Below are positions 4,186-9,750 of a stretch of DNA of 64,000 nucleotides, piece by piece (the first letter of the stretch is position 1; each line of letters begins with the position of its first letter). A program made the translations under genes and the position numbers. Source of the DNA: Fibrobacterales bacterium (GTDB taxonomy: Bacteria > Fibrobacterota > Fibrobacteria > Fibrobacterales > JAOPTW01); assembly GCA_051532055.1 (NCBI GenBank), contig JAOPTX010000036.1, positions 1 through 64,000 on the forward strand, read 5' to 3'. A model generated the notes under the pieces. It made no database searches, had not been told where the DNA came from, and saw only the letters and a program-made list of their open reading frames with translations.

Positions 4186-4220
4186 AAAAAAATAAAGCCC
4201 CCTGTAGGAAGGAGACTTTA
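4186..4220 (-). terminator. Intrinsic terminator (sRNA A / fla5)
   Basis: TAAAGTCTCCT-TCCTAC-AGGGGGCTTTA followed by T7. Confidence 0.75.
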
Positions 4221-4282
4221 CTTTGGAGTTAGTACTGGGTGTTACCCGAGTTGTGCATCTGCGTATCAAACATATGCACAAT
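4186..4282 (-). ncRNA. Candidate antisense sRNA A (independent transcript or fla5 3'UTR-derived), complementary to the fla7 leader and start
   Basis: Hairpin TTGTGCAT-(15-nt loop)-ATGCACAA whose loop is antisense to ATGCGTATCAATCATA; a second block antisense to 8359-8384; ends in terminator 4186-4220; upstream TAAAGTTT-N12-CCCTATAT (4285-4312). Confidence 0.55.
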
Positions 4283-4395
4283 ATATATAGGGAGAATTTC
4301 GTTAAAACTTTAGACCTTTTTATATTTTGGTATGAACGAGGGAATAATGCTGTGCATAAAAAGAGGGATTGGTTATAACGATGGAGCGTTGATTA

Positions 4396-5988
4396 CTACC
4401 CGATAAGGGTAAGTGCAGCATTGGAAACACCATTAGCTTGCGAGAGCATGGCGGTTGCAGACTGTGTTAGGATCTGCTGTTTGGTAAATGCAGTAGATTC
4501 TGTTGCAAAATCAACATCGCGAATACGAGACTCTGCATCTTGTTGATTGAACTCTTGATTGTGTAAATTTTGAATTGAGTGTTCAAGGCGATTGATATGG
4601 GCGCCCACATCAGAGCGTTTTGTTGAGACTGTTGAGATAGCCGTTCCAACGACACCGATACTGGCGTGTGCACCAGTACGACTGCCAACTGAGGCGGCGT
4701 CAACTCCTAGGGCACCACCAGAAACAGATCCTAAGCCATCGAGATCCATTGTGTCGACATCTTCTACGGCATTTGCGCCAATATGCATTTGGAGTGCCTC
4801 ACCAATATCAAATGAGACTCCGGTAAAGCCTTCACCTGTGATAGTGGTTCCGACTTGATCACCAAATGCTGATGCATAGGCTGGGTCTCCAGTATTAAGA
4901 TTTTGTGCTAAAAACCCTGCCTCAAAAGCGGCATAAGTACCGCCAAAAGTTGCAGTTATATTTGCTTCGAGTTGTGCTGATCCACTAATGGTTGTTCCGT
5001 AGATGTCATCAATAGAGCCTGCGCCATTTTGGATAAACATTGCGGCAAGATACGCAGTTGCATAATCTTCATCTGAACCACTCCATGTATTATGGTCAAT
5101 ACTTCCGCCACTTGCAAATGATGACGCCGCTATAATTGCAGCAGTATTGGCGTAACTCCCTGCTAATAAGCTGGTAACCCGAGACTCACCGCCAGCATTA
5201 CTTGCTTCAGCAGCACCTTCGGAGAACCATGTGGGTGGCTGATGTCCATTGATATACTGAAGGGCATGGGTCATTTCGTGAGAGAGAATATCTTGGGCGG
5301 AAAAAACGTTACCGAGGTGATTCATGGGTCCGTCAGCGTTGGCATCCCCTGTTACCTGGGCATTAAAATCATCTAAATCGAGGTTAATGACCGCTTGAGT
5401 ACCGTCAGATCCGCCAGTGGCTAAGAGACCTGCTTCACCATCCATGTTTTCGCCAGTGACGTGGAGGTTGCCAAAGGCCGATAGATTGCTATAGGCATTT
5501 TGTACCGTGGCAGCCGCCCCGGGAAGCCAGTCATTTGTCAGTTTGTCTATTAATTCTTCTGCGTTATCAGCTCCGCCACGTAATACTTGAATGCCATTAT
5601 ATTGTGTAGCATCATTTATGCGAGTCAATTCTTCTGAAAGAGCAGTGAATTCTTGATCGATATATGAGCGGTCTTCATCAGTAAGGGTGTCACTTGCAGA
5701 TTGTATTGCTAATTGGCGTTGGCGCTGTAAAATAGAGTGAGCTTCATTCATCGCCCCTTCAGCAACTTGAAGAAGGGCGACGCCATCCTCCGCATTGTGT
5801 CGGGCACGATTATTACCTCTGATTTGAGATCGCAGTTGTTCGGAAACAGAGAGTCCGGCAGCATCATCAGAAGCGCGATTAATCCGCAAGCCCGTAGAGA
5901 GCTTATGCAGAGAATCACCCAAAGCATTGTTCGCTGAATTAAGCGAATTCTGGGTAATAAGTGCGCTGATGTTGTGATTGATCCTCAA
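4396..5988 (-). CDS. fliC: Flagellin fla5 with inserted gluzincin metallopeptidase domain (flagellinolysin-like), 530 aa, TTG start
   Basis: Flagellin N/C domains flank a ~240-aa insert with SHEMTHALQ (HExxH, 5266-5280) and PTWFSEGAAE (5206-5229). Confidence 0.9.
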   Translation of the reverse strand: MRINHNISALITQNSLNSANNALGDSLHKLSTGLRINRASDDAAGLSVSEQLRSQIRGNNRARHNAEDGVALLQVAEGAMNEAHSILQRQRQLAIQSASDTLTDEDRSYIDQEFTALSEELTRINDATQYNGIQVLRGGADNAEELIDKLTNDWLPGAAATVQNAYSNLSAFGNLHVTGENMDGEAGLLATGGSDGTQAVINLDLDDFNAQVTGDANADGPMNHLGNVFSAQDILSHEMTHALQYINGHQPPTWFSEGAAEASNAGGESRVTSLLAGSYANTAAIIAASSFASGGSIDHNTWSGSDEDYATAYLAAMFIQNGAGSIDDIYGTTISGSAQLEANITATFGGTYAAFEAGFLAQNLNTGDPAYASAFGDQVGTTITGEGFTGVSFDIGEALQMHIGANAVEDVDTMDLDGLGSVSGGALGVDAASVGSRTGAHASIGVVGTAISTVSTKRSDVGAHINRLEHSIQNLHNQEFNQQDAESRIRDVDFATESTAFTKQQILTQSATAMLSQANGVSNAALTLIG

Positions 5989-8420: not shown

Positions 8421-8545
8421 ATGTTTTTTTTGCAAAAAAAATGAAAACTGTTTATTATATGAAATAAATGGCCAATGCGTCCCATACGGGCCATATATAA
8501 AAAGAGAATTAGAAAGGGGATTTTGAAATGCTGGAGGTAGAAATT

Positions 8546-8617
8546 AAAAAAGCCCAAACGGAGCGGGCCTTTTTAAAAAGATTTGTGTACGGAAATACAC
8601 ATCAACCTTTAATGCAT
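8546..8617 (-). ncRNA. Candidate sigma28-driven antisense sRNA B (~70 nt) complementary to the fla8 leader
   Basis: Lies after the fla8 terminator; own promoter TAAAGTTT-N12-AACGATAT (8623-8650); hairpin TGTGTA-TTTCCG-TACACA; terminator GGCCC-GCTCCGTTT-GGGCTTTTTT; no ORF; 15/15 and 14/15 complementarity to 9687-9701 and 9627-9641. Confidence 0.7.
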
Positions 8618-8669
8618 TTATAATATCGTTTTATGACAATTAAAACTTTAGAGAAATATGAGAGAAAAT

Positions 8670-8699
8670 AAAAAAGACCGAAATTTTCATTTCGGCCTT
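8670..8699 (-). terminator. Intrinsic terminator after fla8
   Basis: AAGGCCGAAAT-GAAA-ATTTCGGTCTTTTTT. Confidence 0.85.
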
Positions 8700-8746
8700 C
8701 GGAGTTAATACCTGCGTATCAGGTATTGGTGTATTGTAGGGTACTT

Positions 8747-9604
8747 TTAATTGAGGAGTGCAAGGGCAGACTGCGGAGCAGTATTTGCCTGCGCTAACAT
8801 AGAGACAGATGATTGAGTCAAAATCTGAGTTCTGGTGAACTCGGTTGATTCTGAAGCAAAATCCACATCACGAATCCGTGATTCCGCATCTTGTGTGTTA
8901 AACTCCTGATTGGCGAGATTGTTGATTGCATGTTCGAGTCTATTCACATAGGCGCCAACATCAGATCTCATGGTATTTACTGAGGTGATTGCAGTATCTA
9001 TTGACGATATTGCCGTGAGTGCAGATGCTTGAGTTGATACGCCCACCGCACTTGTTCCTGATGTAGATATAGCAAGTGATCCAGTAGTGAGGGCGCTCAT
9101 TGATATACTAATACTGTCTGAAGTTGTTGCATTTGCACCGATATGGAGTACCGATGATGATGAACCGCTCACACCAAAAGAGCTGTTGCCGCCATCGATG
9201 AGGGTCTGTCCATTGTACTGAGAGCTATTGGATATTCTATCGACTTCTGCAGCGAGTGAACTAAACTCCTGATCGAGATATCCACGATCAGTTGAAGTCA
9301 ATGTATCATTTGCTGCCTGTACAGAGAGTTCTCTCATTCTTTGCAAAACTTCAGAAATCTCATTTGCGGCTCCTTCCGCTACTTGTAGTAGCGCAATGCC
9401 GTCTTGTGCATTTGCTTTTGCACGACCGAGCCCTCTGATTTGTGAACGTAATTGCTCTGATACTGAGAGTCCTGCAGCATCATCTGCAGCTGTATTGATT
9501 CTGAGTCCAGTAGAAAGTTTTTGTAGTGATTCGCCCATTTTGCCATTCGCATGAGCAAGCGCGTTCTGAGTTATCAACGAATTGATATTGTGATTGATAC
9601 GCAT
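8747..9604 (-). CDS. fliC: Flagellin fla8 (285 aa)
   Basis: Flagellin N/C motifs. Confidence 0.97.
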   Translation of the reverse strand: MRINHNINSLITQNALAHANGKMGESLQKLSTGLRINTAADDAAGLSVSEQLRSQIRGLGRAKANAQDGIALLQVAEGAANEISEVLQRMRELSVQAANDTLTSTDRGYLDQEFSSLAAEVDRISNSSQYNGQTLIDGGNSSFGVSGSSSSVLHIGANATTSDSISISMSALTTGSLAISTSGTSAVGVSTQASALTAISSIDTAITSVNTMRSDVGAYVNRLEHAINNLANQEFNTQDAESRIRDVDFASESTEFTRTQILTQSSVSMLAQANTAPQSALALLN

Positions 9605-9750
9605 TATAAACCTCCGTGTTTATAAAGATGTGTACTTCCGTGTATTGGTGATATTCGTATTATTTCCGTAAACGAGTATCTCTGTTTGCATTAAAGGTTG
9701 AGGATATGAAGTCCTCCTTAAAATTATCGGGAGGATTATCAAAATCTTTA
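9605..9750 (-). promoter_or_regulatory. sigma28 promoter and leader of fla8 with several ANGGA sites
   Basis: TAAAGATT-N11-CCCGATAA (9724-9750); TAC-ACGGAA-GTA (about 9633-9644); TTATAAAC-ACGGAG-GTTTATAA at the SD; TACGGAAATA (9661-9670). Confidence 0.8.

Follow-up and report, generated by a model that had tools for sequence, protein, structure and literature searches.

A short gene, here called sRNA B, lies directly downstream of the flagellin gene fla8 in an uncultured marine Fibrobacterales bacterium, and the RNA that it would encode is complementary to the 5′ leader of fla8 to an extent far beyond chance. The gene is supported in silico as a discrete non-coding transcription unit, with its own predicted promoter and terminator and no conserved open reading frame (ORF). 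We tentatively favour, with a little less than even confidence, the reading that sRNA B is a FliA-driven trans-acting sRNA that lowers the translation and/or the mRNA stability of fla8; its transcription, FliA dependence, duplex formation and regulatory sign are what we infer from the analyses below. The window, that is, the whole stretch of DNA analysed (64,000 nucleotides), makes up the initial 64 kb of a 100-kb contig in a 5.17-Mb MAG that is 94% complete, and matching DNA occurs in marine and plastisphere metagenomes.

The first 9.6 kb of the window hold eight tandem flagellin genes on the minus strand, one of which runs off the window start. Both Flagellin_N and Flagellin_C domains were found in all array flagellins scanned (7/7), and TsaD and a 171-aa ORF lie upstream of fla8. 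A ninth flagellin gene is located on another contig (C10), directly before an adjacent fliW-csrA pair. As read from the sequence, all eight array leaders contain a GGA-in-hairpin motif and a GGA-containing SD; the hairpin is short with a (A/C)(C/U)GGA(A/U)G loop, and the SD is embedded in A(C/U)(A/G)(U/C)GGAGGUUUA. Such a two-site GGA layout is known from CsrA-controlled flagellin mRNAs. Because the fliW-csrA pair is present and the GGA hairpin and SD motifs recur in all eight leaders, it seems reasonable to call the GGA motifs of the fla8 leader putative CsrA-type sites. Neither Hfq nor ProQ was found in the 94%-complete genome. An RNA chaperone is not required in many phyla, and Hfq and ProQ are the partners of enterobacterial and Vibrio sRNAs.

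Two other members of the array differ from their listed or typical form. In one ORF, given as 303 aa with its start at 2905, Flagellin_N begins at residue 20 and the genome search aligns flagellin from 2854; its true start is probably 17 codons downstream, which would place the GCAAGGAUGC hairpin in its leader. The gene at 4396-5988 (minus strand) starts with TTG and encodes an array flagellin of 530 aa whose central part carries a long insert, compared with 285-288 aa for the others. Across the collection, flagellins were present in 140/296 genomes, a tally that includes the unpublished G253.

The sequence-only reading had placed an additional sigma28-type promoter after the fla8 terminator, with no ORF behind it and a terminator about 70 nt further on, and pattern counts, the predicted fold and an ORF check all confirmed this arrangement (Table 1). 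When the sigma28 consensus was derived from this genome's own flagellin genes (−35 TAAA(G), −10 (G)CCGATA(A/T)), the strict pattern TAAAGNNT-N12-14-CGATA had three matches in the 64-kb window, compared with 0.09 expected from shuffled sequence (0/100 shuffles reached three). All three are inside the flagellin array, and the two matches other than the sRNA B promoter are flagellin promoters. The distance from TAAAG to CGATA is 17 in the sRNA B promoter, and this genome's flagellin promoters show distances of 16-17; the sRNA B −10 box has A in place of the consensus C directly before CGATA. A profile search detected fliA in the genome (259.5 bits, with a cut-off of 189.6 bits). The RNA would begin with AUGCAUUAAAGGUUGAUGUGUAUUUCCGUACAC, 6-8 nt past the −10 box. 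A sigma70-like match on the plus strand at 8596-8624 (10/12) was also noted, and it would yield an RNA antisense to the sRNA B promoter.

The predicted fold of the RNA consists of a free 5′ tail of 7 nt, a first hairpin (hairpin 1) with a UUCC loop and the terminator hairpin, with a minimum free energy of −24.1 kcal/mol (z = −4.7) that none of 200 shuffled sequences equalled. The anti-GGA hairpin loop UUUCCG described earlier is recovered in this fold as UUCC, that is, UUUCCG minus its closing U.G pair. No conserved ORF was found in sRNA B; overlapping ORFs of at least 20 aa start in sequence that is unconserved in the sister genome, and a coding reading of the 31-aa plus-strand and 57-aa minus-strand ORFs that overlap the region was rejected for the position of their starts in such sequence. 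No GGA motif is present in sRNA B, which contains the complement UUCC instead. A CsrB/RsmZ-type CsrA sponge requires several GGA loop motifs, and this identity was rejected. When both strands of the whole window were searched with Rfam, no family reached its gathering score; the match to Thr_leader (RF00506) was sub-threshold (21.9 bits with a gathering score of 55, E = 0.051) and was set aside.

Contigs from metatranscriptome run X2, which comes from the same sample as the best DNA match, cover fla8 at 8692-9641 and leave both the sRNA region and the part of the leader upstream of 9641 without coverage; contigs of such a standard library cannot reveal a 73-nt RNA. One fla8 contig of X2 starts at 8692, inside the terminator stem, after adapter letters, and the longest ends at 9641, the 5′ edge of target T2, without a loose end, although contigs cannot define RNA ends.

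Table 1. Features of the sRNA B gene, of fla8 and of the predicted pairing sites (window coordinates)
Feature	Position	Strand	Details
sRNA B sigma28 (FliA)-type promoter	8623..8650	-	−35 TAAAGTTT (8650-8643), N12, −10 AACGATAT (8630-8623)
Predicted sRNA B, ~73 nt	8545..8617	-	Both ends predicted: 5′ ~8617-8618, 3′ in U-run ~8545
Seed block 1, UGCAUUAAAGGUUGA	8602..8616	-	15/15 with 9687-9701, duplex dG −20.6 kcal/mol; 5′ part unpaired in sRNA fold
Seed block 2, GAUGUGUAUUUCCGU	8589..8603	-	14 Watson-Crick (WC) + 1 G.U with 9627-9641, dG −22.0 kcal/mol
sRNA B intrinsic terminator hairpin	8544..8576	-	UUAAAAAGGCCCG / loop / UGGGCUUUUUUAA; GC-rich, then U-run
fla8 intrinsic terminator, upstream of sRNA B promoter	8665..8700	-	12-bp stem (8700-8673), then T-run
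fla8, 285-aa flagellin, first array gene	8747..9604	-	Flagellin_N 6e-42, Flagellin_C 1.3e-28; RNA-library contigs over CDS
Weak start-codon sites	9592..9606	-	UAAUGCGU + sRNA 5′ AUGCAUUA: 8 bp, 1 G.U; AAUGCGUAUCAAUC + sRNA nt 12-25: 14 bp, 4 G.U
fla8 5′ leader	9605..9720	-	TSS predicted ~9720 from promoter TAAAGATT-N-CCGATAAT, 9750-9723
Target T2, ACGGAAGUACACAUC	9627..9641	-	Second GGA motif; −37 to −23 relative to AUG
Target T3, GUUUACGGAAAUA	9661..9673	-	First GGA hairpin loop
Target T1, UCAACCUUUAAUGCA	9687..9701	-	Just 3′ of the leader's 5′-terminal hairpin; mostly unpaired in leader fold; −97 to −83

The collection contains one further genome of the genus (G001). Its gene arrangement is the same, and its comparison with the present genome argues that the sRNA B gene is under purifying selection. 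The sRNA B body is identical at 71/73 positions; both substitutions convert a predicted A-U pair to G.U, and one of them sits in the terminator hairpin. The fourfold-degenerate sites of fla8 differ at 46/156 positions (29.5%), and the 120 columns downstream of the sRNA B terminator include 44 differences. The −35 and −10 boxes are identical at all 16 positions, whereas the 12-nt spacer between them is identical at only 7/12 (5 differ). Because the boxes and the body are kept while the spacer and the flanks diverge, the locus is better interpreted as a transcribed, structured RNA gene than as a decaying remnant. In DNA run X1, a variant strain is represented by contigs that match the window at 8536-8630 and leave 8431-8535 and 8631-8688 uncovered. 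This pattern fits selection on sRNA B, and the variant may be the same sister lineage.

The search of related genomes envisaged in the sequence-only reading was made with a two-copy covariance model, which matched only in the present genome and G001 (110 and 109 bits) among 151 genomes of the order; within the genomes searched, the sRNA B sequence family appears to be confined to this genus. The next-best match, 34 bits on contig C44 of the present genome, was rejected as an ordinary terminator. Because only two genomes carry sRNA B and the two copies are nearly identical, there is no within-family covariation to draw on.

The two main blocks of complementarity to the fla8 leader were both recovered at their previously described extent, block 1 by BLAST and a repeat search and block 2 by a duplex scan and a repeat search. 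The third, in which UAUUUCCGUA (8588-8597) pairs 10/10 with the GGA site at 9661-9670, was likewise confirmed by duplex and repeat searches and is extendable to 13 with one mismatch. Block 2 consists of the 5′ arm and the loop of hairpin 1, with the anti-GGA UUCC loop at 8591-8594. When both strands of the 5.17-Mb genome were searched for non-self sites that pair with the first 40 nt of sRNA B over at least 15 contiguous bases with at most one G.U, four were found. Two of these four fall in the fla8 leader, 45 nt apart and 1 kb from the sRNA gene. Shuffled sRNA B seeds never matched the observed blocks (0/500), nor did the flagellin leaders of other Fibrobacterota loci reach them (0/86). The complementarity between sRNA B and the fla8 leader is not due to chance. 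What is exceptional is the contiguous pairing alone: fla8 does not stand out by duplex energies that tolerate loops, and 5/28,006 random 140-nt windows in the part of the genome scanned reach its −28.8 kcal/mol. Other 14-16-nt complementary sites (on contigs C23, C51, C64, C75 and C25) were considered as a second target and rejected, as they are in no evident 5′ region.

At the DNA level, the same matches form two 15-bp inverted repeats, one perfect and one of 93%, that bracket the fla8 CDS, with arms 1070 and 1023 nt apart, and they could represent a phase-variation inversion or the remnant of a rearrangement with no RNA function. We regard this explanation as very improbable. The block order is unlike that of a simple inverted duplication, in that the reverse complements of T1 and T2 abut in the wrong order while T1 and T2 themselves are 45 nt apart. 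No strand-changing joint was seen in the DNA-run contigs examined, which drop rare variants, and the present genome and G001 share the same orientation. Moreover, this explanation leaves the conserved promoter boxes, hairpin and terminator unaccounted for.

The pairing could also take place within one mRNA, if read-through from fla8 carried the sRNA sequence as a cis-acting 3′ extension and 5′-3′ UTR pairing controlled translation or decay. The complementarity is indeed to the leader of the same transcript, and the sRNA gene lies on the same strand ~50 nt past the fla8 terminator. That terminator, however, has a 12-bp stem and a T-run, the conservation of the −35 and −10 boxes across a diverged spacer points to an independent start, and the seeds of all the analogues described below are near predicted sRNA 5′ ends. 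Cis action is improbable on this evidence, and we return to the reading of sRNA B as a separate, trans-acting RNA.

Blocks 1 and 2 occur in parallel order on the target, as had been pointed out before, and a single sRNA molecule cannot engage both T1 and T2 in a simple nested duplex. In the best complex obtained by co-folding, sRNA nt 2-15 pair with T1 and the UUCC hairpin stays intact, with a net energy of −14.4 kcal/mol (−14.3 kcal/mol when T1 was enforced). When T2 was enforced, sRNA nt 15-29 paired with 9641-9627 and an additional AUGCAU:AUGCGU helix formed at the start codon (net −13.5 kcal/mol). T3 alone gave a net −6.9 kcal/mol and the G.U-rich start-codon helix −3.6 kcal/mol. The predicted T2 plus AUG mode is consistent with antiparallel pairing and is approximately equal in energy to the T1 mode, and it would offer a simple way out of the topology puzzle; its layout is that of G005a, an analogue in another genus. 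These models suggest that one sRNA B molecule can bind either near the 5′ end of the leader or at the second GGA motif and the AUG, and that two molecules could do both. In both predicted modes the SD hairpin is uncovered.

We scanned Fibrobacterota flagellin loci (sets of 23, 8, 40 and 13) for a sigma28-type promoter after which a terminator, not a flagellin start, comes first; 76 promoters in the scan precede flagellin genes. Convincing orphan units were limited to flagellated lineages of the same order, namely G002, G005 (two units), G125, G124, G231 and the metagenome contig L088. None was found in the loci of 27 genomes of other orders or of five g9/g11 genomes, which were covered over a few kb per flagellin. 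Pattern matches in L177, L190 and L036 look like chance and were discarded. The orphan units lie directly after a flagellin gene. Each combines a sigma28-type promoter and a terminator with a 60-100-nt RNA whose 5′ seed is antisense to the translation initiation region of a flagellin, to a GGA hairpin or to both.

In G125, G124 and G231, the 5′ 16 nt of the predicted RNA (AUGCGCAUUGRAAACY) are antisense to flagellin positions −8 to +8 (0/500 shuffles, p < 0.002). In G125 and G231 the targeted flagellin directly precedes the sRNA gene, and in G124 it is on another contig. G005a, found in the order TsaD, two small ORFs, flagellin, sRNA, is by its gene order a positional orthologue of sRNA B in another genus. 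It is predicted to form a near-continuous 25-bp duplex over the SD, the AUG and four codons (−12 to +12, −31.3 kcal/mol), and it also matches a GGA hairpin loop 10/10. For the second G005 sRNA, the predicted partners are flagellin mRNAs from another contig, at a GCAAGGACG site (10/10) and an SD-AUG spacer (9/9). When ranked by block score, foreign leaders were as good in 2/86 cases for G005a and in 21/86 for L088, so these two matches are not significant. The seeds of the analogues are no more than a few nt away from the predicted sRNA 5′ ends; they vary among lineages and match their own leaders. Such lineage-specific seed-leader matches may be taken as the nearest thing available to covariation. 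The orphans pair mainly with the SD and AUG, whereas sRNA B pairs mainly with upstream leader sites, and their sequences cannot be aligned with that of sRNA B; a multiple alignment was uninformative.

One conserved family among these orphans, in other flagellated Fibrobacterales genera, comprises units at L168 4569-4667 (minus), L169 2349-2444 (minus), L184 2973-3086 (plus) and L088 1303-1402 (plus). In the first three, a sigma28-type promoter and a terminator enclose an RNA whose 5′ seed, AUGCGCAUUGRAAAC, is antisense to a flagellin SD-AUG region. The L088 unit is without this seed and pairs with codons 1-5 of its own flagellin, and it is assigned to the family through the terminator, in which, compared by eye, the stem differs between G125 and L088 and the loop AUU(C)GCCCU is constant. 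The two G005 orphans are at L166 3141-3235 and 5022-5135 (plus), the second beyond a divergently oriented chemoreceptor gene. Another orphan was noticed in the window itself, at 4190-4310 on the minus strand between two flagellin genes, with the −35 sequence TAAAGTTT, a poorer −10 box (CCCTATAT) and a terminator. It would produce a ~90-nt structured RNA (−28.3 kcal/mol), whose loop UUGAUACGCA is antisense 10/10 to positions +2 to +11 of fla8 and fla7 and forms 10 bp, including one G.U, with three other paralogues.

We favour repression as the sign of sRNA B because in five other lineages the analogues are directed against the SD and/or AUG and because the Vibrio cholerae sRNA FlaX represses flaB through three 5′-UTR sites; the plain anti-SD/AUG layout of G005a, by analogy, tilts the sign in the same direction. 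In the favoured mechanism, sigma28 (FliA) would transcribe the stand-alone ~73-nt sRNA B together with the flagellin mRNAs. The free 5′ tail and hairpin 1 would then pair with T1, with the GGA hairpins T3 and T2 and weakly with the AUG, and occupancy of the standby and CsrA-hairpin sites and of the AUG would reduce the translation and/or stability of fla8. fla8 and the RNA that restrains it would thereby both be under sigma28, forming an incoherent feed-forward loop that could set the share of the fla8 paralogue in a filament of up to nine flagellins. Direct occlusion is weakened by the positions of T1 and T2, which miss the SD and the AUG, and by the pairing at the AUG, which extends over just 6-8 bp. 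The earlier inference that sRNA B binds the fla8 leader and either represses or activates it has thus gained a defined gene anatomy, conservation and a complementarity beyond chance, with binding at the level of prediction.

The opposite sign would result if sRNA B masked T3 and T2 from CsrA and left the SD free, in which case fla8 would escape the homeostatic FliW-CsrA brake and sRNA B would be a paralogue-specific activator working at the mRNA and not through sequestration of the protein. Because the main blocks avoid the SD and coincide with the presumed CsrA sites, activation by CsrA exclusion is a serious rival, although we consider it unlikely. Of the GGA motifs upstream of the SD, the two that are best defined are those to which the loop and arm of hairpin 1 are antisense (10/10, and 14 WC + 1 G.U). 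The SD hairpin is uncovered in either predicted mode, fliW lies next to csrA, all eight array leaders have the GGA-in-hairpin motif, and sRNA B, being without GGA, would not act as a CsrA sponge. On the other hand, the CsrA sites of the fla8 leader are putative, some weak complementarity to the AUG region is still present in sRNA B, and the pairing with the SD and/or AUG in five other lineages is a repressor layout. A broader proposal, which we rate as rather unlikely, is that flagellated Fibrobacterales have a class of sigma28 sRNAs, at least one for each flagellin array, co-evolving with the leaders of individual paralogues, and that in this genus the class has shifted from AUG blocking to CsrA-hairpin masking. 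sRNA B would then be an mRNA-level 'anti-CsrA' and a private exit for fla8 from the FliW-CsrA checkpoint.

The closest known case among the sources consulted is FlaX of V. cholerae, which pairs at three sites in the flaB 5′ UTR and controls filament composition (PMC11879080). FlaX is cut by RNase E from the flaA 3′ UTR, is ~265 nt long, belongs to the RpoN class and is bound by ProQ, and its authors propose that such sRNAs are general at flagellin loci (PMC11879080). As far as that account describes FlaX, sRNA B shares with it a gene directly downstream of a flagellin, an organism with multiple flagellins and, by prediction, three-site pairing in a 5′ UTR. In contrast to the 3′-UTR-processed FlaX, sRNA B appears to have its own sigma28-type promoter after the fla8 terminator and a length of ~73 nt, and a search of its 94%-complete genome returned neither ProQ nor Hfq. 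FlaX acts on another paralogue (flaB), whereas the predicted target of sRNA B is the gene just upstream. In addition, the sRNA B sites are GGA (CsrA-type) hairpins and the phylum is different; this separation from FlaX is by description, not by sequence.

The E. coli sRNAs FliX, MotR and UhpU are sigma28-dependent, UTR-derived and Hfq-dependent and pair inside the fliC coding sequence, and FliX, which comes from the flagellin locus, reduces fliC mRNA and flagellin (PMC10578931). On the features given there, sRNA B would share with them the FliA link and the pairing with a flagellin mRNA, but it differs in being a stand-alone gene, in its predicted pairing with the leader and in a genome in which Hfq was not found. 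CJnc170/FlmR of C. jejuni, an organism with FliW-CsrA-controlled flagellin, is a FliA-dependent stand-alone sRNA whose overexpression shortens filaments (PMC11187230). Its proposed targets are class II genes rather than a flagellin leader, and the parts of that paper on which this comparison draws report no antisense to CsrA sites (PMC11187230).

What is new in sRNA B, if the predictions hold, is the phylum, the stand-alone sigma28 unit, the adjacent upstream paralogue as the target and the antisense to GGA hairpins in a FliW-CsrA organism. A full-text search, which covered openly readable rather than subscription literature, found genomic and isolation papers on Fibrobacterota and none on their sRNAs or flagellar regulation. 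To our knowledge, the flagella of Fibrobacterota are known from genomes alone. If the favoured reading is true, flagellin-locus sRNAs that set filament composition would be no peculiarity of Vibrio and the enterobacteria, and the same solution would have arisen in a distant phylum. sRNA B would also be a specific example of competition between an sRNA and CsrA for the same hairpins of a flagellin leader under FliW-CsrA control, and the lineage-specific seed-leader pairs of the Fibrobacterales would constitute a natural set of compensatory variants.
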